DNA from: Dudresnaya verticillata
Taxonomy: Eukaryota
Length of the DNA: 64,000 nucleotides
Direction: 5' to 3'
Assembly: GCA_977862235.1 (NCBI GenBank)
Contig: OZ374564.1
Location: forward strand, 2,666,001 to 2,730,000
Shown here: piece after piece, positions 39,876 to 62,562 of the stretch
How the letters are laid out: the number at the start of each line of letters is the position of its first letter
How positions within the stretch are numbered: position 1 is the first letter of the stretch
Made by a program: the position numbers and the translations under genes
The notes under the pieces: model-generated
What the model was told of the DNA's origin: nothing
What the model saw: only the letters and a program-made list of their open reading frames with translations
Databases searched by the model: none

Positions 39876-40174
39876 AGGCTAAAAGAATCAGGTTAAAGGG
39901 ATAGAAGGTGAGTCGTCAGCAGGTGGAGTCCGGATGGCACCGTAGAAGTACAGTGCCATCCGCCGGAATCCGGGAACGGTTGGAGTACCAGCACGCTATT
40001 CAAAAAGCCATAGTGTGTAAACAAACGAGGGAAGAGACCAAATACCTCGCTAGATGAGATGCTGCAGTATATGGAAAGGTGCGCGAGCAGCGGGATCGAA
40101 CCGAACGGGATACGGTGCGAAAGGGAACCGAATGTATGGGAAAGTGGCCGGTGCGAAGGAGTAGGGAGGGGGAC

Positions 40175-40428
40175 GGATAGAATGGGAAAGAGAACGGATA
40201 GAATGGGAAAGGGGACCGATAGAATGGGAAAGGGGACCGATAGAATGGGAAAGGGGACCGATGGAAAACGAAAGGGGACCGATGGAAAACGAAAGGGGAC
40301 CGATGGAAAAGGAAAGGGGACCGATGGAAAAGGAAAGGGGACCGATGGAAAAGGAAAGGGGACCGATGGAAAACGAAAGGGGACCGATGGAAAAGGAAAG
40401 GGGACCGATGAATGGGAAAGGGGACCAA
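40175..40428 (+). repeat. Purine-rich 21-bp minisatellite, about 12 copies
   Basis: GAAAGGGGACCGAT(A/G)GAA units in tandem. Confidence 0.95.
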
Positions 40429-41066
40429 TACTAAAAGAACCCGGCTCTGGATGGAAGGATGAGTCGTTAGCAGGTAAAGTCCGGATGGCGCCGTATAAAT
40501 ACGGTCCTTCCCGGCGGCTTCCGTTGTAGAACTACAACGGCTTTCACAATGCCAAACGGCTCTGAAGACAGTCAAGATCAGATCCGGCTTTGGATCACGG
40601 ATCGGATCCGTGAGCATTCTGTTCTTCAATCCGGAGCATCGACGCCGTTGGCGTTACAAGGAGAACGGTGCAATGTCCGGAGCTTCGACGCGGTCGGCGT
40701 TACAAGGGGAACGGTGCAATGTCTCGTGAGAAGAAACAGCTTTGGATCTCAGATCTGACGAGAGGAGCCGTTACGGAATACACATCATCAACGCCGACAG
40801 AACCAAAACAGTATTCCCGCCAATAAGGCCAGATGACCGTTCCAATATCTACTCGAAGTGACGCAGTTCCACCGATCACCCGCCCCCTCCCCTCACCCAT
40901 TGCGCACTCCGAGGAAAGTTGAGTGTGGCGTGCGCGATTGCGAACCGGACTACGGCAACGTCTTGCGACGGTCTCCGACAATCCTCTCTCTACAAGAAGC
41001 GCGCTAACACGCAGACTTCTGCAGGCGACAGGCGATTCAGCGTTGCCTCTGAAGGATCCACGAGGG

Positions 41067-41089
41067 CGACGACGACGGCGACGACGACG

Positions 41090-41121
<32 letters not shown>

Positions 41122-41139
41122 AACGACGACGACGACGAC
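41067..41139 (+). repeat. (GAC)n microsatellite
   Basis: Near-perfect GAC run. Confidence 0.95.
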
Positions 41140-41531
41140 CCACCGCGGCGAAGCAATTGAGTTAATTACTTCTCTTCGGTTTCAATTAACGGTATGTAAT
41201 TGCAAATTTCTTTTGGTACCGCTTACACAATTGTTCGGAGTGATTCGAGTGGCGGTGTCAACGGGAACGGCCGTATACGGTCGTTTCCAAGTCGGACAGC
41301 ACCGTAATATTACGGTGCTATCCGATTGACAGTCGCAGTGTGAAGTTACGGTGGCATCCGAATCGGAAGCTTATCGGACAGCAAAAACGAAAGCGACTGT
41401 GAATCGGATAACACCGTAATATTACGGTGCTGTCCGGTTTGCCGTTTAGAAATTATTGTATACTGACTTGAAATTCCCATGTTCCACTTGTTTCAGATCG
41501 AAAGTAGTGCAATTGCGGAGCTCTGCACGGA

Positions 41532-44500
41532 ATGAACGGTCTTAACGGAGGTGATGGGGTCCAGGAGTCGGAGTTGAAGCTCGAGGAATATGGCTTACGT
41601 CTTATTCCGGAGGTCGCGGAGCTTCTGTGCGTCGTATGCCAGCATGCCGTATTCTTCGGTGTGCAAGGACAGGACAATCTCTTCAGGCATTTGCAGAAGT
41701 GTCAGCCGTGGAAACGGGTCACCCGCATCGAATCGAAGGAAGTGTACAAGTCGTGGGATACCGTCAAGAGGGCCTGTGTGCGCACGGCTTCTGAAGAGGA
41801 TTACCATGTGTACATTGGGAGCTCAGTTCGAAGCTCTTCTCGAAGAGCCGTGCGCAGGATTCCATTTTTAAGAGTTATGGAGTGCATTCCTTGCCCTCAA
41901 TGTTCGTTCTTGTCTTTGTCTTCTCCATCGTTGAAGAAACATTATGACGCCGAACATAACTCTTCTGGAAAGTCCATAAGTCTTGCGGAGATCAAGGGCC
42001 TCGGAGGTGTAAAGTGCCAGAAGCTGTTTAAGGGAACTGGCACAGGAAATCCGTTTCTACTAAAGGATGGCGGAGCAGCGGAGTGTACCGGGAATGGAGA
42101 AGCCCGGGCAAGCGGGGAAGGTTCATCTCATGTCCAGCTTCTATTGCACGAATTGAGCGAGGCCAGGAAAGGAAGGATGAAGGTAGAAGAGCCGGAAGAG
42201 AAGGACGTGAGGAGAATGGGTCGTTTTGCAAGTTGCACGAGGCCAGATTTGAAGCTCGAGCAGCTGCATCTCAGCATGGAGGAGGCTTCCAGGTTGAGCG
42301 GAGATGCCTGCCGCGGAGAGAAGGTTTTTGACTAAGATGAAGTCGAGCTGAAGAAGTGGCTGACAGAAGCCGTTCTTTCCGTATTCCAGCATGGCCGTCG
42401 CTGCTCACAGAGGCCCAATATGACGATGTCCAGGGTAATGTTCGCTGTTCGAGCACCTACTGGTGCGACGGGGAGCCAAAAGGTCGAGTTTGCCTGGGTA
42501 GAGAGGCAGTCCGAGAAGAGGTATGCCTCCTTCGTGTCTCGTGGAGCGTTAGCAATTCTACGCATGATTAATGCGTCTCGGGAAGGTGAGGAGCTCATCG
42601 CCAGTGAAGAATTACGCTCTGCCTGTGAGAAGGTGATGGAGGTGTATCGTGAAGAGACTCAGGAAGAACCGGAAGGCGCCGTAAAAATACGGCGCTGTCC
42701 GACGGGACCGTCCGAAAGTATAGTGGCGATGCACGCTTTGCTGAGAGCTTTGTTGTATGAAAGGGTGAGCGTGGATGAAGGCAGCCACTTCTGTGCTGCT
42801 CACGTCCTAACAACCTGTCTTTGTGTGAAGCGTGCGGGAGGGGGGGTTACATTTTCTGAGGGCAGGGATCTGTCTCCATTTCTTGCTGCACTCGCCTATG
42901 CGAGTTCTTGCTGCGCTTTCATCGACATATGTAGCGTTGAGAAGGAGGGTACTTGTGATGAGGAGTTGGCCAGGGTGGAGTTGAGGCATCAAGCCGGCGG
43001 GAGTTTAGGGATACATTTTCTCCAGTCCCTTTGCTTGCAGGCTCGACGGTTTCGGAATGAAGAGTACTCCAGGAACACATGGCTTCCATGTGACGATCCT
43101 GAGCACGTGGGCAAGTGCTGCGGGTACGTGGAGGGGCTTCACATGAGCCCTGATGAAATTGGTATTTGTGTGAAGAAGATGCAAAAGGAGGCGGTGAGCC
43201 TAATGTTCGACCCAACTGGTATTCTCTGCGGGGTAGAACTGCCAAAGGACTTTCAGAAACGCCTCTCGAATATGGTAGACGACACCAGGAAAGAAGACAT
43301 TCCGTATGGATTCATGGAAGATGAGCGGAATGCTGAGATTGTCAGAGAATGCCGCGATCTCGTCGATTCTGCGGTGAGAAAGATGGAATCATTAGACGAA
43401 CGAGCATTCGAGAAACGCGCAAGGGTGATGCTATCGAAACTAAGGAAGTTCCATGTACTCATGGTAGCCTGTTTGCATCTGGCGGGTGGTAATGTCTGTC
43501 GCGGTCCGGAGCTTGGGTTCTTGGCCGTGAGAAATACGGTCAGCGGACCACGTGGGATTCAACTCCCGGGTGGCCCCCGAGTTGCTGTAATTCCAAGTTA
43601 CGACAAGACAAGGAACATGAAGAGGGGGAGAATGCGTGTCATTAGCAAGCATCCTGATGTCGTTACGAGCAACCTGGTCAAATTGGCGATTCTCGTTGGG
43701 ATGGAGTTCAGGCTAGCGTTGTCCCGACTTGTCAGTAACAGGGAGTCAGGGCGTGCGGCCGCGGTCTACGAAGATGGGGCAATGGACTATCTCATGCCAA
43801 CGGCTAGTGCACGATCGGGGTGCCTGCAGCTCGCGGGGAACATGTGGAAGAGTTTTGGTCTGCCTGAAGAATATGGGGCGGAGAAACATCGACAGTGGTT
43901 TGGTGGATATGCGACCGACAAGGCCAATACGGACGAGAAGTTCCGTTACGTCGTGAAGATATTGAATGGTTTCAACAAGGGAGATTCGGATGCTGCTGCG
44001 CTGAATAGTGGAGACCTTGGAAGTGTGATGCAGGTGCAGGGAGCACACTCTGTGCATATCGCGAGAACTCTGTATGGAGCTTGCGCGCCGAACATTGCCG
44101 GTGGCGGTGAGGTAGATGATCGGAACATGAAGCAGTTCAAGCAAGTATCTGACTGCTGGCTCGCAGATTGCGGCTTGGACAAGAACTTTGATTGGAACAA
44201 ACTCCAGGGTGGCGATGAAGAAGGAGAAGGGCGTTCCCGATTGAGTCGGGTTGTGCAGGCGCGAACCGTTTCGGGTGTCAAACGCAGACTCTTCTCTAGC
44301 GGAAGCGGGACAGGAAGCGTGTCGAAACCGGAGAGCGCCGTAATTTTACGGCCGCTTCCGGAAAATTCAGCTGTTCCGAGAGATGCATCAGAGCCGGAGA
44401 GTACCGGAGGATTACGGTGCTGTTCGCCTGTGGATTTTTCAAGGCAAGCCTCCAAACCGGAGAGCGCCGTAGGATTACGGTGCGGTCCGGCCGTGGATGT

Positions 44501-47216
44501 TCCCAGACAAACCTCCGAACCGGATGGCACCGTAGGATTACGGTGCCTTCCGATTCCTAAACATTGTGATTCGGCGGGGCAAGCAAGCGAAGTTGAAGAC
44601 GCCGTAGAAGTATGGCCGCCTCCAGAAACGGGAATTGGAGAGGAAAGAGAGTCGCAGGAGCAAGGAAGGGATGTAGAGAGCGCTGATGGACCCAGTGGTC
44701 CCGGATTGGGAACTGGAGGTGGCGGAAAGGGTGTGAAAAGAGCGATGTCGGGAGACCTGGCTGGAGCCGTACTCCCACGTGCACGCAAGCAGAAGCTTCA
44801 AGGACAGGAGGCGTTGAATGAAGGGGAAGAGAGCAAAGGTGCGGAAAGTGGGAGCGCCGGGGTGTTGGACGGCAATGGGCATGGTCTCCGACTGGATGGG
44901 TGCGATGTTTCTGAGATGAGTCGAGAAGAGATGGCTGATCTATTAAGGAAGTGTTTGGCGACAATCTCGGAATCGGAGCAGAGAAAGAAGGCTTACGAGG
45001 ACGAAAAGCGGCACACCGAGAAGAGGGAAAGCGATAATATTATAGGATTGGGTGATGAACTCATGTCAGATGCAGCACGTCGCCGCTCTGATAAGGATAA
45101 CCGTACAGTCGAAGCTCGCAAAGCAGAGCGTGAGGCTTCAATTGCACGGCGTGTACAGGAATGCCTTGCGCACGCTGTAGGGGACCGTGATGCCGAGTTC
45201 AAAAGCGAAGAACAGAAGCTGGCAATGGAACTTGTATTGCGCAAAGAGAGTGACGCATTAATCGTGCTGAGGACAGGAGGTGGGAAAACCGCCGTTGTTT
45301 TTGGGCCCGCTTCAAGTGAACAAGGAGTGACTATTTTTATATGCCCCCTTCGATCACTACGGGAGGAGATCAAGTTGCGATGTGATGATATCAGGCTGCC
45401 CGTTGTCGATATTGAAGACTTGGACAACAACGAAGTTGAGAAGCGCTTGATGCCGAGAGGTATAATCCTTGCGTCCCCTGAGATCGTGTCCTGTCGAAAG
45501 TATAATTCGGTGCTGAGGAAACTGTACGGAGAAGGGAAGTTGATGCGTGTTGTTGTTGATGAGGCTCACATCGTTGTTCTGAGTGCCCACTATCGCAACT
45601 GTATGTTACGCATGCGGCACGCAAGGCCGGATGGTGTCCAGGTACCGATCATTATGATGACGGCCACTGCACCGCCACATTTGGAGAACCGTATAATAGC
45701 TGGTAACGGAGCCGTGGTCGGGAATACGAAGGTGATTCGTGGCAGCCTCCGTCGGGACAACATAATGTATACCGTGGAGCGGCTTTCGAAAACGACTGAC
45801 GAGGAAGTGGGGCACTGTATTAGACACGCTGTCACCCATGCAGTGAGTGAAGCGTTTATTGTGCGTGGTGGCGGCAAAGTTCTCTTGTGTGTGCTTACGA
45901 AGGGCGAGGCTGATCAAGCTCATGAACTTCTCGAGCGGAGCAGAATGTTCTCGGGAACAGCGCATATTATAATATGTAAGTATCACAGTGGAATGAGTGT
46001 TGAAGCACGGCGGAACAGTGTGGCCGAATGGGGCCGAAACGGGGCAGCACAGCGCTCCGTGTGTGTAATGGTGGCCACGGAAGGATTTGGTACAGGTATC
46101 GATGCCCCCGACGTGGCTCAGACTATAATTGTTGGGAGCAGCCGATCGCTAATGGAGCTGTATCAAGTGGGTGGGCGTGTTGGTCGGGATGGGAAACCAG
46201 GGAGCGTTAGTGTACTGTACCATCATGAGTATGCTGACCGCGCCAACGTGAAGGACACGGAGTCACTGATCGCCTTGAAACGGTTTCAACGGTGGGCCGA
46301 GGACACGAGAAAGTGTCGTGTCAAGGAACTTGAGCAGTATTTGGGATGCCCTGAGGAGCCTTCGGATTGCAGACAACGTGTGTGGGAGAGGACGGAATCT
46401 TACATTCGGTGTTGTGATTACTGCGCTAGGTTTTCTCCGGTAGTGGAAGCAGCGGAATCGCCGAAAAATGACGAATTGGACGAGTCGTCATCTGATGACA
46501 CCGGTTCTTCACAGCAGAGCCCGTCCTTACGTCCAGCAAGGAGTTTGCATGAGGTTGGTGGTGGAATAACCGAGCAAACGGCAAATACAGGGAGACAGAG
46601 ACAGACGGAAGAAACTGTGCAGTGCACCCCGGAGGATAGCGCGGTGGCTGCAGTTCGCACGGCGAGTGGAGCAGGCGAAGCAGTTGAAGAACTGCGGGAT
46701 CTTGCCGTCAAGCTGGCTGGTGTGTGCCCGCCTTGCTTTGGTCGTACGAGGCCCGGTGACAAGGTGTCAATCCGTGCCTGCCGGAACAGCCAGCATTCGA
46801 GGAGCTGCTATTTTCGGCAGTGTATACGGTGCATGTCCGGGGGGCACGATGCAGCCCAGTGCACTGTACGGCCTTGGAAGGCACGCGGCGGTGTGTTCAG
46901 CGCTGGTTGTTCGGAGTGCTCGATTCGAACGTTTGGTTCGAAGAAGCTCCATGTAGGGAGCGGCAGTCCGAGGCGAGGACAGAACGAGTATGGGTCGTCG
47001 GAACGTTGCCCGTTCTTCAGACCCGTACAGCTAGCGATGGCTTTTTGGAGCCACGAGGAGAGGCGCACGGAAATGCTTGCGCATCGTGGGATGCGACGTT
47101 TCAGGAGATGCTCAAGTTTGAAGGCTTTCTGTGAGGAGCTTGTGTTGGACAAGCCTGGGTGGTGCCCAGGAATTCTTGAGTTCTCTCGGTATGCTGTGGA
47201 AGTGTTTGATTTGTAG
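41532..47216 (+). pseudogene. OrsD/DUF3505-like Zn domain + tyrosine-recombinase-like domain + RecQ-type SF2 helicase + Cys/His knuckle fusion; single in-frame stop at 42333
   Basis: ORFs 41532-42335 and 42420-47216 are in the same frame with only one TAA between them. N-terminus: LLCVVCQHAV..RHL and CPQC..KKHYDAEH. YR-like: CRGPEL (R at 43500), YDKT (K at 43605), EKHRQ (R at 43890), QGAHS..ARTLY (H at 44046, Y at 44073). Helicase: LRTGGGKT, VVVDEAH, MTATAPP, YHSGM, VATEGFGTGID, QVGGRVGRDG, CR..CCDYC. C-terminus: CIRCMSGGHDAAQC. The helicase call is firm; the YR call is moderate. Confidence 0.85.
44328..44625. repeat. Cluster B: five in-frame copies of the 34-bp palindrome inside the CDS
   Basis: Starts at 44328, 44394, 44457, 44520 and 44592 (spacing 66/63/63/72). 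Translated as PESAVILRP, PESTGGLRC, PESAVGLRC, PDGTVGLRC and VEDAVEVWP. Confidence 0.9.
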
Positions 47217-47491: not shown

Positions 47492-47985
47492 CCGGAAGCC
47501 ACCGTAAATTTACGAGGGTTGCTGGTTGCCATGTCTCCACGTCCTCGAGATTAGCGTACGGGTGAACCGGAAGCCCTTGTAAACTTAAGATGACTTCCGT
47601 TGTATCTTGAACTATTGTAGAAGCGTCTTGAAGTGAAGTAGAGCCTAGGAGGGTGCAGTGCGTAGAGCGGGGGCGGCGTTGGAGCGGATAGCACCGTATA
47701 ATTACGGTTCTATTCGGTTTAAACGTGTAGAGCTGGAGCGGCGTTGGAGCGGATAGCACCGTATAATTACGGTGCTATCCGGTGGAGGAGTGTAGAGTAT
47801 GTAGAGCTAGGGCGGTGTTGGATCGGATAGCACCGTATAATTACGGTGCTATCCGGTTGAAGAGTGTAGAGTATGTAGAGTTGGGAACGCGTTGGAGCGG
47901 AGAGGACCGTATAATTACAGTGCTCTATGGTTTGAGGGTGTAGAGTATGTGGAGCTGGGACGGCATTCGACTGGAGAGCACCGTA
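47492..47985. repeat. Cluster C: palindrome array downstream of the helicase gene (65-74-bp units)
   Basis: Degenerate copies at 47492 and 47567; clear copies at 47684, 47749, 47823 and 47897 (spacer TATAATTA); left half-site at 47971. Confidence 0.93.
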
Positions 47986-48773
47986 CATTAATTCATTGAG
48001 CGGGAAGGCATCGCAATGTACGCGCTTCTTGCAACACGTGTCCACGGGTACACGCCCTACACTCTGTGCACAGTGTACCAACTGTAAACTCTGTACACGT
48101 GTGGCATCTTGGCGAGTACGTGTGTGAGGTGTTTCGGGTTGAAGTTTTGGCGCGGAGAAGGTCGCCGTGTGGGCATCGCAATGGCATAACTTGTCGAGAC
48201 GGATGAGGGTTTTTTGGTGGCGACGGTAGAGGCGGCTAACGTCGGGTGGCTTCTTGTGCACACTGGTGTGCAGTCGAGCTAGCACAAACCCACCTTCAAG
48301 TTGGAGTCGTGCTCGTGCGATGGGGAGTGTGCGAGGGGTCGGGGGCTGAGGAATTGGACGAGAAGTACGGCGGTTGCTGCTGTCAGTTGCGCGTCCCATG
48401 ATCAGCTAGGGGTGGAAGCGCCATGCGTGGACGGAGAGCATTGCGTCGACGGATTTAGGGTGTACGTGAGTCTAGATTTTGATGGGAAATTGCCTGAAAG
48501 TTTGAGATTGACTGTGCAGGCCCGTGCTCTCGACTGTCACCTCACCACCCCACCACCGTATCCGAACCCCGTCCGGCATCACCTGATGCGCCCCGTATCG
48601 TCAAACATACCGCTGCTGCAGATTTATGCCGCAAAGTGCGGTCTCTTCTCGCCCTTCCGAGTATTTGAGCGCTTCACTGAAGGTTTACACCGACAGGATC
48701 ACCCCATTGACCGTCGTTTGGCCCGCTAATCCCTGAAGCAGATGGGTGGCTTGTCTCCGGCAGCGCCAAGGAA

Positions 48774-49757
48774 ATGTATGTGCCTGCAAACTGGCTAAGA
48801 GCGTTTGGGAGTGGCAAGGAACTGCTCGAAATTGGCCTGGATCAGTCGGGAGACGGGTTTATCACGCGCTTTCGGCATAGCGTGCGAAGGAGGCTTGTTA
48901 CGGACCGTATGGCGATACCAGGACAATCAAGGTATGCTGTGCTGTTCTCAGGGGGTATCGATTGAATGGTCATTGCGCGAGTGCTTGATGAATGCTTGAC
49001 TCCCGGGGAGGGTATTACGTTGATCAATGTTGCTTTGGGCGCCGACTCGCAGGCTGTGGCGCAGTGTCCCGATCGACTAAGCGCAATTTCGGGATGCGAA
49101 GAGCTGCGTAAGCTGTCCGAGACGGACAGAGTCTTCGACTTATGCTGCGTGGACGTCGCCCCGGAACAGGTGGATGAGACGCTTGAAAAGCAGGTACGTT
49201 TGCTTGTGCACCCGTGCGACCAGGCCATGGACGCGTCGATAGGCACCGCGATCTGGCTCACAGCGCGTGCGGATGGGAGTTCACATAGCGGGCTGCAGGG
49301 AACAGCGAAGGAGGCACGAATTTTGTTCAGCGGGCTCGGCGCGGACGAGCTAATGGGCGGGTACAAGGGCCGACACCGGACGATATACCGGACGGAGGGC
49401 GTGAACGGTGTGCTGCGAGAGATGGACGCTGATTTGAGCAGACCGTGGTTTCGGAACCTAGGTAGGGACGACCGGCTTGTCGCAGACCATGGCAAGGAGG
49501 TCCGTCATCCGTTTCTGGATGAGGACCTCATCGAGTTTGTAACTGGCCTCCCTTTGGAGCGGCACGTTTGTGACCTCTCAAGACCAGATGGAATTGGCGA
49601 TAAGCACCTGCTCAGGCGCGCCGCAATAGTTCTTGGTTTGTCGGCTGAGACGGCAAGCGGTTCGAAGCGAGTGGGTCACGGAGCAAGCAGGTCATTGAGC
49701 GCAAAGGTTCTTGTTGAACATTTGGAGGCAGTTTTTGGCTTAAGCCAAAGTCTCTAA
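48774..49757 (+). pseudogene. Asparagine synthetase domain-containing (ASNSD1-like) C-terminal fragment
   Basis: AVLFSGGID*MVIA with an in-frame TGA at 48963, LFSGLGADELMGGY, RNLGRDDR and RHPFLDE. No N-terminal glutaminase domain is visible. Confidence 0.82.
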
Positions 49758-50108
49758 AGTGCGCCAATGAGTCCCATTGCCCGTCAACCGACGAAGACTA
49801 CGAAACAGGCGGCTCAACACGCATTAACGCGAACTTGTCCGCCACCCGGCTGGCTCACATCCGCATAGAGTGCTTGTCATAGCCTAGACACTAGTACCCC
49901 AGACTCGCAGCAAGTGAGAGGAAGCATTGACGAATTCGATTGCGGCGAACGTTGCGCGTGGTACCGTTGAAGGTTGCTATTCGATCCAAATACTCGTCAG
50001 ATTGGGCTTCACTGCCCAACCGCACAACATATCGCGCCATTAAGCTGGTATTGAAAAAACCGTATTGATCAAGCTGTAAATGTTGGAAAGGAGCTGTCAC
50101 AGACGCTG

Positions 50109-51324
50109 ATGGAGTGTAAGAACACATTGAGAGTTACGCTGCTTCCACTGTCGACAATCGATACTACAGCTCAGGGAAAAATTCGCTCTCTGGATACAAT
50201 CACTCTGAAGGAAAGGTCAGCGACGTTAAGTTCGCTAGAGCAGGCCGCGCTGGACATCGAACAGATCCTCCAACTCAACATCTTGAAAATGTTTCCGATA
50301 TTGAAGAGGCAATATCAACGCTTTTACAAAGCAGTAGATTCCAGAGCACTTGTGTTCCGCGACACAGTGCGCAGCCTGCTTCCCCAGGTGAGGGACGGAA
50401 ACACAGATCAGGCCGAAGTCATGCGCGATCTTGAAAAACCCATCTGCGTTGCAAAACACCAGGCAGAAGTAGCTCAGGACTTTATTGAGGCGAAGCAACA
50501 GGACTGCCGAGTTCTCGATGTGACTACTGCGAATCTCTTCAAGCATGGCTTCGAAGACTACCGCGATTCAGTAGATAATCTTGCTTCCGTCGTATCAGAG
50601 AATAGCAAACCGCGTCTATTGCTTTCTTTCGCTGGGATTAAGGCGACACACAGATTTGAGAATCAACTCCCCCCGTGCTTCTCATGCTTCTGGAGAGAGC
50701 ATATCGAGCTCTGAGACGTCGCCTGAAGGGGACCACTCGGCCAGTGACATTGATGACGAAGATGAGGAGTGGTTTGAGGACAAGGCGAGTTTGGAGTATT
50801 TGGGAAGATCCTGTGAGGTTTTGCGAAAGCTGAGGCATAACAATCGTCTAGCTGAGTTCGAGGCCTTATATGGAGTGACGACTGCTGGTCGAGCATTCCG
50901 CGCTGACGGCCGTAAAATGAAGAGGACTCGTATCGGAGATATTGTCCTAGAGGCAAACGGACGACGACAAATTGTCACTCCTGTTATGGTTGGACCTCCG
51001 AATCTTTCATGCACCGTTAACAAGCAGACTGTCAAAGTCGCATGGCATCCTACTGATAGCGAAGTTCTTCCTGCAACGGCGTTTCTAATCTCCTATCAAC
51101 CTACACGGAATGCCGCTCTCGACGAATTTGATCAAGCCGTCGCAGCCAATGAGCCAGTCGAGTACTTGGTGCAGCCTGATGGGGACAGCGTCCTTGCTTC
51201 TGCGTCACAGATGCTGTGCATCTGGAAGGCGTCTTTGACAACGCACGCCACTTTGTTGATCACGCGCTGGGAGCATCAGAAGATCCTGCAACATGCCAGT
51301 GCAGACCGGTTTGGCGTGCAGTAG
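50109..51324 (+). pseudogene. Unidentified, probably frameshifted coding remnant
   Basis: Two overlapping ORFs (201 and 247 aa) with protein-like composition (helical part, acidic SDIDDEDEEW). No motif recognised. Confidence 0.35.
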
Positions 51325-51644
51325 CGTGATGTCCTGAATGTGTCGAAAGAGCTCGTCAGTTGTGTATCCAAAAGCATGTCTCCGTGTGTGTAATGTGACG
51401 TGGTCGACCCGGAACTGGCGCTGTCGACCAAGGAGAGCAAGTCGGCTGCGCTGCTGTTTTACTTGGGTGTTGTGCTGCGCCCGACCAGCGACGCTAGCCA
51501 GAAATTGACCGAACGGGATTTGGTTCGTGTGTCGTCCATCTTCGCGGTGGAGATGGGAATGGTAGCCGTGCTAATGAAACCCACCGAGGCAATTGAACGA
51601 ATGAGGGTTGATGACGCAGAACGCTAGCTGGGGGGCGTCGAGCG

Positions 51645-51980
51645 CAGAAGCACGCGGCTCGCCATCGCGGCAAGGTCAAGTCTTTTCCGAGGGATGACCC
51701 CAAGAATCCGTGCCACCTCACCGCCTTCATGGTCTACAAGGCCGGTACGACCCAAATCGTCCGCGATGTTAACAGGCCAGGTTCCAAGCTGCACAAGAAG
51801 GATGTTGTCGAGGCCGTGACTGTCACTGAAACTCCACCAGTCGTGGCCATCGGCGTTGTGGGGCTCACTGAAACCCCATACGAACTGCGCTCGATGACGA
51901 CCGTTTGAGCCGAGCATCTCTCTGAGGAGGTCAAACGTCGTTTCTACAAGAGCTGGTATCGCAGCAAGAAGAAGACATTT
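51645..51980 (+). pseudogene. RPL3: 60S ribosomal protein L3 N-terminal fragment
   Basis: Manual translation: [60 protein letters not shown]...TTV*AEHLSEEVKRRFYKSWYRSKKKTF. Stop at 51906; start and C-terminal two-thirds are missing. Confidence 0.93.
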
Positions 51981-52299
51981 CTGCATCTTGCTTTTCTACT
52001 TTCGCTGTGAATATTTTGGCAATATTCCTGGGAAGGCGCTGCCATGCCGTCAGCGACTCCGCAGCAGGCCCAAACGGAGTGTTAGTTCGGAGCCGGGCTT
52101 CCTCTGGCCGAACAACGCGATCGAATATGGGTGTACCAGTATCCTGCAGTCGATATCCTCATCATGCTTAGAAGGAAGGCCCAGACTCTGTCTAGGATTG
52201 CACTTGGGAGGCCGCGGTCATTTGACTTCTTCCCACGGATCGTCGGGAAGCGAGGCCCGGATTGTCCTGGACAGTTGGCATGCCCGGGCTCCACTCTGC

Positions 52300-52680
52300 A
52301 TCGGACTGGCGACCGATAGCTTCTGCATGCGTATCAGAATGCTTGCAGCTTGCGGATCGAATCCGTGCTCATCCGCAGTTGCGCTCTTCAACGACCTGTC
52401 AGACCGCCTCTGTTCGGTCTTGGATGCCGCAGAGCTGTGTCGCAATGTCCACCCGAACCTGGGGTTTGTCCGGGACGCAGATGACACATTTCTGCAAGTC
52501 TCTTCAGTTCTGCAGGAGCTCAACGCGGACTAAACCCTGTATGATCCCCTAGATCGACTGTATGACGATCACCTACGCCATCTTCGCAACGCCGCCGATC
52601 GTGCGAGATTCGTATCTGATGAGGACGTGTTTATGGCGAGATTTCTCAAGCACGAGTTTGAACGTGGCGGTATAGCTCTT
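52300..52680 (+). pseudogene. Mitochondrial intermediate peptidase-like (peptidase M3) N-terminal fragment
   Basis: FNDLSDRLCSVLDAAELCRNVHP...LQELNAD*TLY...FLKHEFERGGIAL resembles the MIP/Oct1 N-terminal helices. In-frame stop at 52531. Confidence 0.7.
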
Positions 52681-52697
52681 GGGCGTCGTGACCCGCG

Positions 52698-52935
52698 ACC
52701 TGGCACGTTTACTCAATGGAGTGGACTCCGCACAGAATTGCCTTCTTTCATGACGGTAGGCAGATTGCCGATGCATATGACAAACCGCGCAACCCCACGA
52801 AACGCAACTGGCCATTTGATGGGGAAACCCCTTTCTACCTCATTATCAACAACGCCATACACCCGAGCTGGGGAACTGAGCCTCAAAACCTTGAATCGCA
52901 TGTACTGGAAGTTGATTATATTCATTTCAGAGAGT
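52698..52935 (+). pseudogene. GH16 glycoside hydrolase C-terminal fragment
   Basis: WHVYSMEWTPHRIAFFHDG...WPFDGETPFYLIINNA...LEVDYI. The catalytic ExDxxE region is absent. Confidence 0.8.
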
Positions 52936-55004
52936 ATCCGATGCAGCAATGGTGCGCTCTCCTGCTTGTGTACCTGCCACGGCACTGGTTTGGTCCAGTC
53001 TGTCAGTTTGGTCTATCTGTGTCCAGTACTGCACTGTAGTACGCAAGACCGGCCGACTGCCGTCACAAGAGAAAAGTGTGCCCTTATTCAAACCATTGAA
53101 CCACATCGGACGTTTTACTGTTTCAGTCCACTACCCTCTCACGGTCAGCAAGGGCTGAGCAGACCGGCAAATAAGATGGTGAAGGGCGCCGAGCGAACAA
53201 ACGAAGCGCGAAACTTGTCGAAGAAGAAGCAGCTCTGCAGCAGCTACAAGAAGTGCGGCGCACTGTAGTAAGAAAAGAGCGTACGTCTGTTCTGGGAACA
53301 GAAGTCCAACACGAGATATCGAGACATTGGGATATGGTTGTCACACACGAACGAGTTGTAAATGGCACTCTATTACACAGCACTGTCGTCGAGCACTACT
53401 TGCACATGGTATGCGCAGTGTTGAGTGCGTGAGAGCGACGAGAACGCTACTTGTATATGCATGAGGATAAAAGATGTCGGAGGCGAGGCTATATCGACAA
53501 CAATGCACTGACGCTAACATGGAGTACTAATCTAAGCGGACTGCATGGTGGAGATGGAGATTGCAGAGCAGACGTGGTGGCTTAGTGGATGAGGAAGCGG
53601 CAGAAAGCCAACTCGAGAACGACTTAGTTCTGGCTGCTTCATGCAAGCAGCTTAGGATGCGCTGGAACATGCTGTTCCGAACTATCTACAAACTTCATCG
53701 AACAATCTTGGCATCACCAGCGGTGACGATTCGATACACAGCATGGGGGCTCGGGACCAGGTAGCAGATGAGGTGCTTTGGATGACGGAGCTAGAAGGGC
53801 TCGTGAATGGCTGGTGCCGCAACTATAGGAGTCGGTTCGGATTATAGCGTGTGCTCCAGGGCTTGGAGGAGCTTGTTCCACTCTTTTGTTTCTAGCATGA
53901 TGCTCAGGCGCCGGTTGGAGTACAATGCAGTGGTGCTGCAGCTATTTGAGCCGTCTTGGAACCTCTATTCGCCCCTGAAGCACCACAAGCCCGGAGTCAA
54001 GAGCATCAATAGGAGGGCACTGTGCAATAGAAAGGTGGTATCGCGGACTGCCTGGGGCTTTCACAGTCTCTCTGTGGCTGCGTCGGTTCCCCCGTGTCGA
54101 CTCGAACTGACAAACAGTATCGCAGCCAGAATACAATGGTAGTCAGCTCTGACCCCGTAATAACGGGCTATTCTGGCAGTTGTTCTCGCAAAGGATGGAA
54201 AGGGAGGCTTGCTACGTTCCTTCTATCCGCACAGTAGTAGCAGAAACTTGCTTGAAAGGTGACTCTGCGTATGTGCGGCCTGCGATGTGAGGATCTGTGA
54301 TGATCTTGTCGTCAGTCTGCAGTTCTGACAAAACCAGCAATGGCTGCTCGTGTAACATATCCGCCACAACTACGCAAAATTGGCCATTGATCAATCGTGC
54401 ATAAGTTCCTCTTCATTCATGGTTGCAGCACGTCCAATGTTAATTGAAAAGCCGTGCGAGTGAGCTTCTGGAAGACACGACTGTGCGGTACGATTGCAAA
54501 ACCTGATATCAACGGTAACACGTTTACAAGTGTGTTCACGCTGCTCAAAAACGAAACTCGTCGAGCTGCGACTCAGCGAACATTCGGACGCCTTAGGACT
54601 TAGCCTTGTTTCAACTCTTAGCGAATACAACATATTATATTGCCAGAGCCACGGCATCCTAGAGGGACAAGTCTAGAGGTACCCCTAAAAGGCTGCAACT
54701 AGAGTTCGAAGCATTTAGATGGTGCTGAGGGGCATAGCTGAAAAGCCGCAGTCGCTCTTGTTGAGAACTCGATGGGGAGTCTCCGTTTACTCGTAGGTAT
54801 TTCTGATATGGCGTGCGGTACTGGGAACTGTTATCTACCGTGCTGTATTTATCTTGACAGCCAATGTGTCTCACTCACGCTCACGCATCGACTTTTGTGT
54901 CTGCACATGTCAACCAATTTTGAGGTTGCATGTTACGTTGGCGTTGCAACCCGACTGAGCAGTTCCGCCCCCCATTGGTTGCGCCCTGGGTGATCATGAC
55001 CGGC

Positions 55005-55270
55005 GTTGGGGTGTGTGTGTGTCCGTGTGTGTGTGGGTGTTGTAACGGGCGTTGCCGTTTTTTGCGGCGGAAGCGGGCGTTGCGGTATGTGTGTGTGTGC
55101 GCGGTAGTGTGTGGGTGTTGCGCAAGAAGCGGGGGGTGAGGGATATGTGCGTGCCGGTGTGTGTGGGTTTTGCGGAAGAAGCGGGCGGTGAGGTGTATGT
55201 TCGTGCGGGTGTGTGTGGGTGTTGCTGCGGAAGCGGGCGTTGCGGTGTGTTTGTGTGTGTGCGTGTTTGA
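55005..55270 (+). repeat. GT-rich degenerate minisatellite
   Basis: (GT)n runs alternating with GAAGCGGG(C/G)G motifs, about 4 units. Confidence 0.8.
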
Positions 55271-56052
55271 GGCGCGATGGCCTGTTGGCGGTTTGTATCG
55301 GTGGGGGCGTGGCAGGCTGGAGCAGCGGCACGCATGCCTGCCGTTTTGTGGGAGCCGGGGTCAATGGGCGCGCGAAGATAGTAACGGAACGCTCAACCGG
55401 TCATCAAAAGTAGCCAAGGGCGGCGAGGAGTGCGGCGCACAAATACAAAATAATGAAAAGCAGCCACGGAGGGGAGCCCACGTGTCTTGCAGAGGCGAGC
55501 TTTGAAAATCCAGATCACCGACGACACTCGACGCCGGTTTGGGGCGGAACATAAGAGCGCCGAGCGTGCACTGTCCACCCCCCCAAGCGCCGACTCTTTT
55601 CCCAACCACTGCGCCGCGACTTCGCCCACCCCAACGCCCCGCGCTCATCTCAACTCGCCCACTCTCGCAGCGCCGCGCTCCCTCCTCCCCGACCCGACAC
55701 CGCAAATGCCGGCGCCCTGCAACGCGAAAGTCTGCTCTGCACGCCCTTCCCGCCCATCTCGCGCACTGCCACAACTTTCGCACGCTACACCCCGCCTTGC
55801 TTCCGCCGCGCGCAAAACGCCTGTGCAGTCCGCCCGCGCACACTCCGAGGCGAAAGCGCATCACTGCGGCGCAAGCGCATCACCGTTACGTGCGGGGGCG
55901 CAAGTTATCGTTGCCGACAGGGCCGCCGCGACGCGACTACTTTCCCGTACCGCGTGCGAACAGCGCGAAAACGACACCCTCCATCCTACCGTTCGCCACA
56001 GCGAATCCGGATCCGATCCGGATCCGATCCGGATTCAGAACCGGATTTAGAA

Positions 56053-56468
56053 CCGGATAGCACCGTAATATTACGGTGCTCTCCGACGCGAGGCCCTAAC
56101 CGCCGCAACCGAATCCGCGAACGGCTCACCGCCGTGCGCGTCAAGAACCGGATAGCACCGTAATCCTACGGCGCCATCTGGCGAGCGGTTCACCGCCGCG
56201 CGCGTCAAGAACCGGATAGCACCGTAATCCTACGGCGCCATCCGGCGAGCGGTTCACCGCCGCGCGTGTCAAGAACCGGACAGCACCGTAATCCTACGGC
56301 GCCATCCGGCGAACGGCTCACCGCCGCGCCCATCAAGAACCGGATAGCACCGTAATCTTACGGAGCCATCCGGCACAAGCCACTAACCGCCGCAGCGGTA
56401 TCCGCGAACGCCTCATCGCCGCGCGCGTCAAGAACCGGATAGCGTCGTAGTCTTACGGTGCTCTCCGG
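56053..56468. repeat. Cluster D: palindrome array (64-bp core units) immediately upstream of the orphan ORF
   Basis: Copies start at 56053, 56148, 56212, 56276, 56340 and 56435; spacers TAATATTA, TAATCCTA, TAATCTTA and TAGTCTTA. Confidence 0.95.
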
Positions 56469-56485
56469 CTCCAGTCTCGACAAGG

Positions 56486-59400
56486 ATGGCCAATAGTCCG
56501 AGGAGAGGGCGAGGAGGGAAGAATCGAGGGAAGCTGCCATCTGTCCGTGGTAGGCGGCCACGAGGAGTAACCGCCGTGCCTCCTGCAGCCGACCCAAATG
56601 ATACTCCTCCGGCAGGCGAAGCTGACCCAACTGTTACTCCTCCGGCAGGGGACCCAACTGTTGACAGCAGCTCTAAAGCAAGGTCGAAGGCGACACCACC
56701 GAAGGAGGTTTCTGAGGGGGTAGCAGGTGACGCCCCCCCATCTGTACGGAAGCCTTCTTCAAATTTGAAGAAAGCATCCGAAACCGCGATTGGCCCACGA
56801 CTACGGAGCGAGACAACTGCAACGGCCCCTCCGCAGTCTTGCAGCCAGGATGATTCATCTCTGACGCCTGCAGTAGCGGGTAAGAGCACAGGGACGCCCA
56901 AGAAGAATTCTGGGGAGCCGGGAACGAAGGCGTCCTCGGGTGGAGGGGCCGAGAAACGAGGTGGTGATCCCACATCGAAACCTCCCCAAAAAGCGGGTAA
57001 GGTCAAGACCGCACTCCCAAGAAACGTGGGAAAAGGCGATGAAGGCAGAAGTCCGCCTGTATCGCGCAAACCAGTACCGCGCAAACCAGCAACCCGCGAT
57101 TTTGTGGAGAAGGGGTCGTCAGAAGTCGGCAAATCCGATGGAGCTGTGCACCCCTCACCGCCGCCGAAAGGGACCCCAAGGGCTCCGCCCGGGCCGCCAG
57201 AAGCGGCTCCGAGTGCGCCGCCAAAAGCGGCCCCGAGTGCGGCCCCGAGTGCGCCGCCAAAAGCCGTCCCGAGTGCCCCAGCTGCTGCTACAGCTGCGAA
57301 ATCCTCTCAATCAGGTCAAGGGGTGCGACCGGCATCGGGCGAAGAGTCACCAGCGATTGCAAAAGCTGCGGGGAAACATCCAAAGCCCGCCGCCCCAACC
57401 CAACCAACGCGGCGGAATAGGGCATCCGATGGAAACCTCCCTAGCACGGGAAGTGCAACTACCGGTAAGACGAGAAACAGCCGAGCCCCTTCTGGACTGC
57501 GCAGTCAAGCTGCGCACAGTGACGCAGGCAAAATGCCGGTATCAAGTAAGGGTCCTCCAACCAGTGCTGGCGAACCAGTGTACTACAACGGGAAATTTAC
57601 CGAATCGGTCACCGGCGTTGGAGAGGCTTCTGCGACGGGCACCACAATGTCGATGAAGTCTAAAATGCCCCAGCCTGCAATCGTTCTCGAGTATTGGGAC
57701 AGTTGGAGGATGGTGAACCGGCCTGGTTCAGATCTTACACAGTTATTCAAGCAGCCAATTGGACATGCTCTATACCCGAATAATGGAGATGGGCAGAAGT
57801 GGCCCGTCGCAATACCACTGTCAAACATTCGGATAGCAACGGCGAACAATATTCGTGAAGTGCAAGAATCGTTTCTAAGTGGCGGGGATGGAGAGGCAAG
57901 GTGGCATGAGGGTTTAGGCGCTGCAACCCTGATGACGACCGCAGCTGCGCTTGGAATTCAAGTCCCTGACGAGTATCTTGAGAGGATACAAATTGCTGAG
58001 AAGTCCGCTCCAGGGAACCCGGCTACAGGACCAATTCACCTCTATCGTTACAAGAAGAGGTACCGGCCCCCCCTTCCAGACGCTTGGAAGCTTCCGCCAT
58101 TTGGCGATGCATATGTCCCGCCCGATGCCCGCATTGGAATCGAGGATGGTAACGTGAGACTGTCCGCTGCCGCGATCACGGGCGTTGAAAAAGTTCGAGC
58201 GCACGTTTCTGTTTTTGTTATCCCTCAACAGCAGCTTGAGGGGATGACCGGTGATCCGTGTGATATCGCTGCTGCTGGGAACTGGCTGGAAGGGATGATG
58301 ACCACAGTTGCAAACAGGCTTAACGAGGCAACTGCCAGTATTGGTACGACCACTCCTGTTCAGATGGCCCTGTCGTGTGCCCGACTGCGTACAGGTACCG
58401 CCCGGCAGCTCCCGTCTCGTGTATGGATGCCACAGTCGGATAGGATCGGTTCGAAGAACAAGACCCTAAGCGAGGTCAGGGCAAAACTCAGGGAGGCTCT
58501 CGACGATATAATCGTCATCTCTGATGAAGAAGATTGTGCAGAACACTCCGATGAAGACAAGCAGGCCAGTCAAGAGAGAAACGACACAGAAGGAGCTGAT
58601 ACGGCCCCGGTGGGCCCGGAAGCGGCCGCCGTAAATTTACCAGGCACTCGGTCCCATGGCGCCTCTACCCTCGTCCTGCCTATTCCAGGCGAGGATGAAG
58701 CTATGTCATACATAGGTACCATCCGAGAAGCTTCGAAGCAAAGGAACAGCGAGGCACCTCCCCCTGCCCGTACTGAAGCTGGTTGCCAGGATCCCGCGGG
58801 CATCAAACCGCGGGAAAAGAAGAACTATGAGATAGCCCCTTGGTCTGGCGTGATCCTGTCGACAAACACACCGGGATATGAGGAGAGTCAGCCGCGGGTA
58901 CCGAATGCAAGCGAGTATCTGGCCGGGGCTTTTGTAGCAGGTGAACGCCACGGTATAGTTGCGCGTTCTGTGATTGGAGATTTGAAACCCGCAGAGAAGC
59001 GCAAGAGGAATGAAATGCGGAAGAAGCGGTCGGGTGAGAATGGTCTTTCCGCGGAACAGTCTGAGGCTATGAAACGCCTTCGAGTTCAGACGCATGGCGA
59101 GGAAGGAAGCCGAGCAGTCCCTGTGGAGGACCTAGAAGAACATCAGAAAGCCGCTGTGGAAGAGGCGAAGGAAAAGAAGACCAGTGACAGACAGTCGTTC
59201 TTGGAGATGGCCAAGGAGAACTCTGATTTCTTGTTCGTGTGCGGCGGTGTTGAGATAGTCGAGAACAAGATTCAGCATCGCTGTATGGCGTGTTGGCTAG
59301 ACTATCAGTTGATTCGGCATGATAAGGCATGCACGTGGGCCCTGGAAGTGCTGGATGCACGTGATTCTCCGGTGGAGCTTGGTGGTGTCAAGCGGCCTTT

Positions 59401-61153
59401 CGTGCTTCCGTACGAGGGCGGGAGGTACCGTTGGATGAAGACGGAGATCAACAAGGCGTGCGACATGTTGTTCACCCCGCTCCACCATGCTTCCGGTCGT
59501 CGCCTGCTCGGTGAGGGCACAGCTCGCAGGTACAAGAATGACGATGTCGCCCTGTACAACATCATGGAGGGCGAAAGGCGTCTGGTTCGCAGTGAAGTCA
59601 CAGGCGTAGCGATGGTGACGGCAGTCCAGCGCCTCGATGCCTACAACGAAGCGACGGAGACGGGGAAGGCGGCCATTGGAGGATATCGACGGGCAAAGCC
59701 GTCGACAAATCCAGAGAAGTGTCTGGAGGAGCCGCAGTCCGAACACTACTACTACCAGGAGTCAAAGTTCTCGGCCCAGACCGCCTTATTAGCAGAGGCT
59801 GCAAAACTTGGGGCGAGGGCGGCAGTTGCAGCGACACGGCTTTGCTGTGGGCTTCTCGGTCTTCGTTCAGTGAACTGCATACTCCTGGCCGGGGAATGCG
59901 AGAGTAGGTTACCCCGACGGACGTCGGAGGCATATGAGTGGTTTGCTATTAACGTTTGGCATCGTCGCCCCCAGACGAGACATATGTTGCATAGGCGGGT
60001 GAGAAGTGGGACTGGAAGTACGACTGGAGCTGGGTGTGTACTAAGAATCGTGAACAAGGAGCAGATGGCCTGGGGGATGCACAGTCTCGATAATCACATG
60101 TGTGCCATTGTGGTGATGGCTCTGCCTGGGCTTCAGAAGGTCCTTCGCGATCTGGTATTTACGGACAAGTATGATGTGGACTTGTGGGCTGGCACGAAGC
60201 AGAGTGGGATGCGTGTTAAGGACCCTGTCGACCGGGCCCGAATGGGTGGAAGCCGCTTTGACTATGATGTCTTTCGTGTTCTGGAGAAAGCAGCTGGTCG
60301 ATACAAGTGGTTGGAGGACGCCTGGCATGATTTGGAGATTCCCTCGCGTATTGCCCGTGTGCTGTACGCTATTCAGACTCGCGACCCGTGCGTTGGGGAC
60401 TTGATGTCCCAATGCATCATTCTCTCGCAGAGACCTGATGATGAAGCCCACCAATCGAAGGTGGTGATGCTTGAATTTGTCAACCAGGACGAGTTTAAGA
60501 AAGACCGCGACATAAACGTGAGGCTGACTGACAGGCTTCCGGAAAGAAGATCTCTGGGGCCAGGAGGTGGGGCATCTGGAGAGGTGATGTCGAATCTTTC
60601 CGGGGGCGGCGGGAGTCGAAGGGGTAGTAAAGGACGTAGGGATAGCAGTAGTAGCGCTGGTCGCGGTGGTGGAGGCGTGGGTGGTGGAGGCGGAAGTGGT
60701 GGTGGGCGTAAGAGAAACGTTTCTTGGCGCCGCGCGCCGCACAACACCGTCGGAAGCATAACTGTTGGCAGAGCTACTGAGGCGCTGCGTGTGGCAGATG
60801 CTGAAGAGCGGCAGAAGAATTTTACTATGGTTCTTGCTAGTGCTTTCGACTTGTGTAGAACGCACCCGGAACTGATTGACAATCACGATCTGGACAAGCG
60901 TGCCGAATTACTTGAAGGGATTCTGAATCAACCAGTAGATGGACTGCCGGACATCAAGAAGGAGTTGCCGGAACCTGAAGAGTTTATGGACGAGGTTCAA
61001 ATTGTGCATGAGCATGTTATGACTCAAGTGCAGTCTGCCAGTCAGTCTGCCACTCAAGCCGAGTCCCGGAAGGAAGGGCGAAAGCAAGCAGAAGATCATG
61101 CAAGGGGTGGTATCGATAGTGATGAGGAGTCTTCAGAGAATGAATCCACGTAG
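56486..61153 (+). CDS. Large hypothetical protein (1555 aa), no recognised domain
   Basis: Uninterrupted 4.67-kb ORF. Pro/Ala/Lys-rich low-complexity N-terminus, globular-looking middle with RCMACW, Gly-rich patch and acidic tail. Confidence 0.85.
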   Translation: MANSPRRGRGGKNRGKLPSVRGRRPRGVTAVPPAADPNDTPPAGEADPTVTPPAGDPTVDSSSKARSKATPPKEVSEGVAGDAPPSVRKPSSNLKKASETAIGPRLRSETTATAPPQSCSQDDSSLTPAVAGKSTGTPKKNSGEPGTKASSGGGAEKRGGDPTSKPPQKAGKVKTALPRNVGKGDEGRSPPVSRKPVPRKPATRDFVEKGSSEVGKSDGAVHPSPPPKGTPRAPPGPPEAAPSAPPKAAPSAAPSAPPKAVPSAPAAATAAKSSQSGQGVRPASGEESPAIAKAAGKHPKPAAPTQPTRRNRASDGNLPSTGSATTGKTRNSRAPSGLRSQAAHSDAGKMPVSSKGPPTSAGEPVYYNGKFTESVTGVGEASATGTTMSMKSKMPQPAIVLEYWDSWRMVNRPGSDLTQLFKQPIGHALYPNNGDGQKWPVAIPLSNIRIATANNIREVQESFLSGGDGEARWHEGLGAATLMTTAAALGIQVPDEYLERIQIAEKSAPGNPATGPIHLYRYKKRYRPPLPDAWKLPPFGDAYVPPDARIGIEDGNVRLSAAAITGVEKVRAHVSVFVIPQQQLEGMTGDPCDIAAAGNWLEGMMTTVANRLNEATASIGTTTPVQMALSCARLRTGTARQLPSRVWMPQSDRIGSKNKTLSEVRAKLREALDDIIVISDEEDCAEHSDEDKQASQERNDTEGADTAPVGPEAAAVNLPGTRSHGASTLVLPIPGEDEAMSYIGTIREASKQRNSEAPPPARTEAGCQDPAGIKPREKKNYEIAPWSGVILSTNTPGYEESQPRVPNASEYLAGAFVAGERHGIVARSVIGDLKPAEKRKRNEMRKKRSGENGLSAEQSEAMKRLRVQTHGEEGSRAVPVEDLEEHQKAAVEEAKEKKTSDRQSFLEMAKENSDFLFVCGGVEIVENKIQHRCMACWLDYQLIRHDKACTWALEVLDARDSPVELGGVKRPFVLPYEGGRYRWMKTEINKACDMLFTPLHHASGRRLLGEGTARRYKNDDVALYNIMEGERRLVRSEVTGVAMVTAVQRLDAYNEATETGKAAIGGYRRAKPSTNPEKCLEEPQSEHYYYQESKFSAQTALLAEAAKLGARAAVAATRLCCGLLGLRSVNCILLAGECESRLPRRTSEAYEWFAINVWHRRPQTRHMLHRRVRSGTGSTTGAGCVLRIVNKEQMAWGMHSLDNHMCAIVVMALPGLQKVLRDLVFTDKYDVDLWAGTKQSGMRVKDPVDRARMGGSRFDYDVFRVLEKAAGRYKWLEDAWHDLEIPSRIARVLYAIQTRDPCVGDLMSQCIILSQRPDDEAHQSKVVMLEFVNQDEFKKDRDINVRLTDRLPERRSLGPGGGASGEVMSNLSGGGGSRRGSKGRRDSSSSAGRGGGGVGGGGGSGGGRKRNVSWRRAPHNTVGSITVGRATEALRVADAEERQKNFTMVLASAFDLCRTHPELIDNHDLDKRAELLEGILNQPVDGLPDIKKELPEPEEFMDEVQIVHEHVMTQVQSASQSATQAESRKEGRKQAEDHARGGIDSDEESSENEST

Positions 61154-61684
61154 GTTGCAACGCTTCGGGCGCCTCCTGCAGTGAACCTGCTAACCAGTAA
61201 AGTTCAAACGTGTACATTCTATCAGCTGATGCGCCTAGTGAGAGGGAGAGTTACGAACGGTCTGTAGACATGTTGGTATCCGACAGACAAGGACAATACA
61301 TTTACTAATATTGGATCTCGGAAAGGACCGATATAGCTGGGCGGAGACGTATGGGGAATTGTAGCAAAGTGACATGGTTAGCGATTGGACTTGCGTCTCA
61401 GCCTGGACCTCGGAGGCGGAGGCGGCAGGACATGCTTTGCGCGGTCAATAGCAAGGAATCTTTGTTCGAGTCTCTGGAATGCTTCTTCTCTGGATAATTT
61501 GGGTTTGTTTGGCTGCTCTTGCCGAGTTCTGGCTGGTCGAGGTGCGGTTTCCTTTCGGGCAGGTGTGTTTTGCGTTCTTGCACGACGGGAAGTCTTGGAG
61601 ATACGACCTCGAGAATGACGGCGGTGGGACTTCACAGGTGGTTTCCTTGGAATGGAGGAGCGAAATCTTCGCCGCGAGTCCTGT

Positions 61685-62430
61685 GTGAAATCAAAATCGG
61701 AGCTAGAGTCAGTGTCTACGTCAGCCGGACCGGGGGCAACACTTCGAGGCATTCTTGAGGGGGTAGGTATGAAAGGACTGGATGTGTGGATGGCGGTGTC
61801 GCGGTGAGAGAACTGTAGGGGGAAGCAAACCTATGAATAGCAATTCAGAGCCGAGCAGTTGATGAAACAGCAGTACATCTTGAAATTGAAAATTTGTAAT
61901 CGGGGTAATGAAGCACTCTTAATAAATCACCAATCTCCGGAGAGCTCGTACGTACCATCGATGTTTAATCGATTCAGTCGACAATGGAGGTTGTCTATTC
62001 GAAAGCACTGTAATCAAGCGACACATTTACGTCATTTACGTCTACGTCTTCATTTGCGGAAACGAACGCAGGTAATTGTCCCGGTGTTGGATACTAGGGA
62101 AGAGGTTAGAGGTTAGGGGATTGGAGGGCCGTATCAATGGGGTAATAAGTGGACGCAGGACTTCTGCGTGAAGTCAAAATCAGAGTCGGAGTCCTATTTA
62201 CAAGTTCGCAGAGCCGCGCGCAACTCATCGAAGAATTCTTGATGGAGTGAGCTAAGTTTCGACTGGAAGTGATGTGTGTGTTGCAGGCCCGACCCAGCGA
62301 GGCACCGCCTGATGAAACAACGGTGCATTTCGAAATTCAAAAATTTGTAATCAGAGCAATGAAGCACTCTTCAGTAATTGCACTCGTCAGTAATCGCCAT
62401 TTCCGGGTTTCTACAGAACGTACCGTCAAT
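61685..62430. repeat. Diverged direct duplication (offset about 450-480 bp)
   Basis: GTGAA.TCAAAATC.GAG...GAGTC at 61686/62168; GATGAAACA...GAAATT.AAAATTTGTAATC...AATGAAGCACTCTT at 61861/62311. Confidence 0.75.
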
Positions 62431-62562
62431 TTAGTCGAGATTGTAGTCTGTCTCCTTGCAAGCCCTCTTTCAAACACAGCGAGACGACATCTCCCTCTGC
62501 AGAATTGAGGGAGTCCACATCTCCCTTTGCAGAATTGAACGCAGTTCGCTATCCCGCTTTGA

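Follow-up and report, generated by a model that had tools for sequence, protein, structure and literature searches.

A 4.2-kb chain of truncated gene pieces is present in the red alga Dudresnaya verticillata, within a stretch of 64,000 nucleotides (contig OZ374564.1 of assembly GCA_977862235.1, positions 2,666,001 to 2,730,000 of the forward strand) that we refer to as the window and whose own numbering is used throughout. At 48744-52925, six pieces of unrelated genes follow one another near end to end, all six on the + strand, and arrays of a single palindrome family stand on both sides. Because the pieces are truncated, abutting, co-oriented, decayed, and of host lineage, we attribute the chain to gene-fragment capture. 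An initial annotation, made from the letters of the DNA, had proposed capture inside a candidate element coding for a tyrosine recombinase and a helicase; the capture itself is well supported, and the element as captor and carrier is what we infer, its recombinase being read from motifs and weak Atlas leads. With about even confidence, we regard the chain as inert cargo that accumulated in steps within a large DNA element, one coding for an OrsD-RecQ helicase protein that includes a predicted tyrosine-recombinase region.

Six truncated gene pieces in one orientation

The chain begins with an ASNSD1-like piece (48744-49717) corresponding to the C-terminal ~58% of the gene, in which residues ~239-565 of 568 align over 48744-49705 with 66% identity to the relative P0001; it has an internal stop at 48963 and a frameshift near 49655-49690, and the stop at 49715-49717 is probably the gene's own. 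It is followed by an internal piece (50064-51168; residues ~217-580 of ~1290) of a stonustoxin-helical/FN3/septin-AIG1-GTPase family gene, with a single frameshift in 50640-50690, and then by an internal piece of an RNase III-family gene (51204-51606; residues ~132-281 of 587; E 1e-13) with stops at 51322 and 51391 and a frameshift near 51280-51300. The RNase III-family identity comes from one relative, P0153, and the alignment of the 5' part scores 44, compared with a maximum of 41 among 500 shuffles. The fourth piece is RPL3 (uL3; 51639-51983; residues ~17-131 of ~390), with a stop at 51906. The fifth, mitochondrial intermediate peptidase (MIP, M3; 52164-52692), runs from an ATG at 52164, the probable native start, to residue ~184 of ~720 and has two frameshifts and one stop (52531); a PDB search with this piece returned no significant match. 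The last is the C-terminal third of a laminarinase-type GH16 domain (52692-52925), with a Pfam match (E 3.3e-4) just under the curated cut-off and a PDB match at E 1.4e-7.

By arithmetic on the alignment coordinates, these pieces occupy ~85% of the chain, and successive alignments are ~350, 35, 32, 180, and 0 to 9 nucleotides apart, with three of the five junctions at 35 nucleotides or less. In-frame stops interrupt four of the six pieces and a stop or frameshift five, in line with the initial annotation, which had described them as mostly stop-containing and had placed ASNSD1, RPL3, MIP, and GH16 pieces on the + strand where we find them. Two details are revised: RPL3 was called an N-terminus and is not strictly one, as its first ~16 residues are missing, and the abutment of MIP and GH16 stands but is tighter than the ~20 nucleotides given. 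Among the remnants that had been left without a name, the stonustoxin-like and RNase III-family pieces now have one. Three stretches returned no match: an open frame at 48440-48730 (+), a possible seventh piece (Pfam and further family searches); 49720-50060 (family searches); and a tract at 52930-54950, possibly of further decayed pieces, with no credible match in Pfam and further searches. A stonustoxin-family match at 53030 was weak and was rejected, as the family profile gave it no support.

Such matches are not a general property of this DNA. Four of the 102 stop-to-stop frames in 48-55 kb match Pfam at E<=3.3e-4, and none of 235 frames of 50 to 109 residues in 21.4 kb of other nongenic window DNA does so at E<=0.002 (Fisher p 0.008, for frame sets whose length ranges differ); a Pfam scan of the longer frames of the control DNA likewise gave no fragment-like matches. 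Profiles of the ASNSD1, MIP, and stonustoxin-like families detect no further part of those genes in the window. An Rfam search gave no matches, and there is no regional CpG depletion over the chain.

The breaks are those of decaying sequence. The chain stands between tandem palindrome arrays, which may be troublesome for assemblers, and the initial annotation had itself raised a chimeric misassembly; nonetheless, the open reading frames (ORFs) of 1626, 1588, and 1511 codons that flank the chain are open, pointing to a low indel error, and we therefore take the breaks to be decay and not sequencing error. Joining intact genes would also not yield the conserved-site substitutions and stops seen in the pieces, and we consider an assembly chimera or base-calling artefact highly improbable. 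The substitutions are unequal: 5 of 109 near-invariant columns (4.6%) are changed in ASNSD1 and 8 of 50 in MIP (p 0.025 for the difference), with a median of ~2% among intact relatives and maxima of 7.8% (ASNSD1) and 11.3% (MIP). Unequal decay fits serial capture, and these substitution counts are weakly suggestive of different ages for the two pieces.

The pieces point to the host's own lineage. In a quick tree of 61 rows (the ASNSD1 fragment and 60 of the 120 listed relatives), the fragment is sister to P0001 (support 87) within a 33-row clade (support 100) in which Gracilaria domingensis is the only row named to species, and the clade is apart from Porphyridium, green algae, and fungi. This tree places the ASNSD1 piece among the genes of florideophyte red algae and gives it a red-algal affinity. 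G. domingensis is the best named relative of both the ASNSD1 and the MIP pieces.

The common orientation (p 0.03, two-sided) extends to both long ORFs of the candidate element, the helicase gene and the 1588-codon ORF, which are on the same strand as the six pieces. A sense bias is known among the gene fragments of maize Helitrons. It would also be expected of a chimeric retrocopy, in which mRNAs are joined by reverse-transcriptase template switching or RNA-templated repair and inserted in or between palindrome-bearing elements. RPL3 mRNA is typically abundant, as this explanation would have it, and none of the ASNSD1, MIP, stonustoxin-like, RNase III-family, and RPL3 alignments has an intron-sized gap, although the absence of introns says little because red algal genes are intron-poor. 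Template switching is moreover a known capture route in the available text of one account (PMC13317346). The longest A run in the chain is six nucleotides and there is no poly(A), however, nor is any long terminal repeat, reverse transcriptase, or flanking direct repeat found nearby; the unequal decay is a further, weak argument against a single event. We consider a chimeric retrocopy rather unlikely.

The retention of a probable stop in ASNSD1 and a probable start in MIP, with spacer DNA of no identity between pieces, is what a duplicated block of neighboring host genes might leave after collapse by many internal deletions, and deletions too would yield abutting pieces. At least five deletions would be needed, together with six neighbors that happened to be co-oriented, and the same p value of 0.03 applies to the latter; in addition, the intact host-like genes that a Pfam scan finds at 22-37 kb are on both strands, and decay is unequal. 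Such a collapsed block is very unlikely.

The candidate carrier and its surroundings

The gene to the left of the chain (41508-47216, +) codes for an OrsD/DUF3505-like zinc region, a predicted tyrosine-recombinase region, and a RecQ-type helicase with DEAD and Helicase_C domains. The Pfam matches are to OrsD (E 7.7e-4, below the curated cut-off), DEAD (9.6e-12), and Helicase_C (3.3e-10), and also to ResIII. A single in-frame TAA at 42333 separates the OrsD part from the remainder. We note the branch-point-like context of this TAA (42300-42340), which raises the possibility that it is spliced out with an intron. In the Atlas, the middle region matches unnamed fungal clusters at 0.96; among named clusters, phage integrase (0.83), OrsD (0.82), and NDC10_II (0.81) come nearest, where scores under 0.9 are leads only. 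Reading the ORF at 42336 by eye against the R-K-H-R-H-Y pattern of tyrosine recombinases, we find motif-like R390, K424, R519, H570, and Y579. From these motifs and the weak Atlas leads, we predict that the middle region is a tyrosine recombinase; a single-sequence fold of it has a predicted local distance difference test score (pLDDT) of 37.6, which is too low for use. To the right of the chain, the 1588-codon ORF (56387-61153, +) is probably a second gene of the element and has no family match in Pfam, PHROG, and further searches.

The palindrome unit is 34 bp long, with 13-bp arms and an 8-bp spacer that is specific to each array. This is the geometry of loxP and FRT. The 29 paired units of the window are restricted to 39.9-63.4 kb, with 1-39.9 kb free of them, a confinement that ties both flanks of the chain to one repeat family and bears out the initial annotation's placement of the chain between two such arrays. 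The left array (47684-47990) has a period of 65 to 74 nucleotides and the right array (56053-56468), which extends into the start of the 1588-codon ORF, one of 64 to 95; a long terminal-side array (62563-63460) has a period of 58, and four units upstream of the helicase gene (39930-41437) are probably the left part of the element. Units are also translated within the helicase ORF (42669 and 44394-44553) and at the start of the 1588-codon ORF. No half-site with three or fewer mismatches occurs between 47990 and 56050, and thus none at the piece junctions. An integron-like cassette array is ruled out, as no palindrome site is present at cassette junctions. From the spread of the palindromes, the element would be ~24 kb or more in size and occupy roughly 39.9-63.5 kb.

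Searches for further copies, made in collections that contain little algal nuclear DNA, gave only chance matches. The half-site pattern was found at 4 loci in viral contigs and 42 in metagenome contigs, none of which (46 in all) carries the complete palindrome or resembles the window, and the full pattern occurs at one locus in GTDB, on an unrelated bacterial contig; no match of the recombinase and helicase regions to viral contigs was confirmed.

Several observations weigh against the chain being cargo of such an element. Searches of Pfam, PHROG, and PDB gave no match to the recombinase region, none of 7986 candidates scored in a word-based homolog search with ORF residues 40-640, and its nearest named Atlas clusters (0.81 to 0.83) fall below the level at which they would be more than leads. 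No second copy, empty site, or terminus of the element was found. The segment at 55000-56050 has its own tandem repeats and resembles a separate promoter, start, or end region, and 39309-39568 shares a noncoding segment of ~200 nucleotides, ~73% identical, with 12203-12415, where there are no palindromes. The chain could thus lie between two separate elements, one with the left and the other with the right ORF. At 4.6%, the decay of ASNSD1 does not exceed that of intact relatives, which reach 7.8%, and the figure for one intact MIP relative is as high as 11.3%; the sense bias is equally compatible with an RNA route.

If the element is nevertheless the carrier, copies of 0.2 to 1.1 kb from dispersed host loci would have entered a single zone within it. 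The capture route that we infer is repair of breaks or gaps while the element copies, as proposed for Pack-type elements and Helitrons. Sense pieces may persist because read-through antisense RNA against genes such as RPL3 or MIP would be damaging, and this would account for the common orientation. After capture, the cargo would decay, with the element's own long ORFs remaining almost open. The 34-bp palindromes are putative sites at which the element's own protein binds or recombines DNA, and cargo insertion would not occur via them.

The window has other repeats and genes. Short GGATCC-rich repeats are near 12480, 40580, and 56005, and a foldback or MITE-like (miniature inverted-repeat transposable element-like) element lies just left of the palindrome region (37924-39071; 403-nucleotide arms, 93% complementary and 342 nucleotides apart). 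An old local duplication (61670-61996 and 62154-62453) covers the 5' part of a 150-codon minus-strand ORF (61378-61830). In the 22-37 kb region, an HMGL-like gene (24551-26383, -) and an Asp/Glu/hydantoin racemase gene (28799-29719, -) are both single open frames. Three consecutive ORFs at 7861-10882 (+) end in one with a DUF7869 domain (E 1.9e-47), which we take by eye to be a DDE-like transposase, and a divergent ORF (2507-3685, -) has what we assume to be a ParB-like motif; together these are probably another DNA transposon. A diverged direct repeat (31-169 and 796-934) is 71% identical over 140 nucleotides.

Comparison with known capture and helicase systems

Statements below about published elements hold for the portions of the cited accounts that were available. 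Pack-MULE and Pack-CACTA elements string together a number of short, truncated pieces of host genes (PMC6431247, PMC8903248), and Helitrons carry chains of up to nine fragments gathered stepwise (PMC6431247, PMC3288121). The Dudresnaya chain, with six pieces, shares the accumulation of captured host-gene fragments with the Pack-TYPE elements but differs from them in that no terminal inverted repeats (TIRs) are found around the cargo (47990-56030; erosion is possible), nor any target duplication, and in that the candidate carrier encodes, in place of a DDE transposase, a helicase together with a predicted tyrosine recombinase and belongs to a red alga, not a land plant. It differs from Helitrons in having a RecQ-type superfamily 2 helicase (DEAD plus Helicase_C) instead of a Pif1-type one, with no HUH Rep domain in the Pfam scan, and in lacking a convincing hairpin-CTRR end around the chain in the one copy examined.

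These likenesses leave room for an old nonautonomous Helitron, Pack-MULE, or Pack-CACTA, nested in the helicase element and with eroded ends. Such elements typically carry multifragment chains (PMC6431247, PMC3288121, PMC8903248), large CACTA elements are reported in Chondrus, and Helitron ends are short and easily missed with one copy. The best inverted repeats in 47990-56030, however, are at most 28 nucleotides long at 70 to 88% identity, which is the chance level; of the 6-bp hairpin-CTRR candidates, two on the + strand and one on the - strand, none bounds the identified chain, and no RepHel or DDE transposase adjoins it. A nested Helitron or MULE with its own termini, the competing case put forward in the initial annotation, thus finds no support, and an eroded one is unlikely.

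The helicase gene resembles the fungal telomere-linked helicase (TLH), which combines DUF3505/OrsD with DEAD and Helicase_C and lies in repeats of 11 to 18 kb (PMC5576322; 10.1101/2023.02.05.527183). The two share the Pfam set of one large protein (with OrsD split off by one in-frame stop in the alga) and a similar size, and the Atlas neighbors of the algal middle region are fungal. In contrast to the TLH repeats, the algal element is interstitial as far as the window shows, with no telomeric array among the 41 tandem-repeat rows of the window, and has 34-bp palindrome arrays and a cargo chain; a recombinase and captured fragments go without mention in the available parts of the TLH accounts (PMC5576322; 10.1101/2023.02.05.527183). 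In a fungus, a Helitron-like element is reported to carry a DUF3505 fragment among its cargo (10.1101/2025.11.13.688278).

Cryptons and Starships likewise move by a tyrosine recombinase, as predicted here, and Starships carry cargo (PMC9977147, PMC9156397, PMC8092012). No helicase fusion is described for them in the available text of PMC9977147, Starship cargo is reported to be accessory genes whereas all of the algal pieces are truncated, and the algal element has no Pfam match to DUF3435 or NDC10_II. RecQ-like helicases are present in the DNA transposons AcademH, KolobokH, and Kolobok-1_CCri, one of them from a red alga (PMC9587614, PMC10799480); these have DDE transposases and TIRs, neither of which was detected in the algal element. 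Literature searches gave no description joining telomere-linked helicases with a tyrosine recombinase, although supplements and Repbase, outside the search, may hold one. The carrier is probably a recombinase-helicase element absent from the literature searched. We suggest tentatively, as a possibility, that the fungal TLH RecQ repeats and the red algal element may belong to a single class of large tyrosine-recombinase DNA transposons that has gone unnoticed. Marked here by arrays of loxP-shaped 34-bp sites, such transposons would capture host fragments and chain them in sense orientation, as Pack-type shufflers powered by a fused recombinase and helicase.

Implications for fragment capture

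The fragment chains known so far, most of them from land plants, belong to DDE-based Pack elements and to Helitrons. Should the carrier prove to be an eroded member of either group, the Dudresnaya chain would be an ordinary chain of pseudogenes from a lineage that has received little study. A direct binding or recombination assay is feasible because the 34-bp unit is loxP-like in geometry. If the element is indeed the carrier, the fungal telomere-linked helicase repeats would gain an explanation based on transposons, and the chain would bear on whether RecQ-bearing elements capture host genes, a question left open in the available text of PMC10799480. A chain within a recombinase-RecQ element would then represent a third engine of fragment capture and would extend such capture to red algae.

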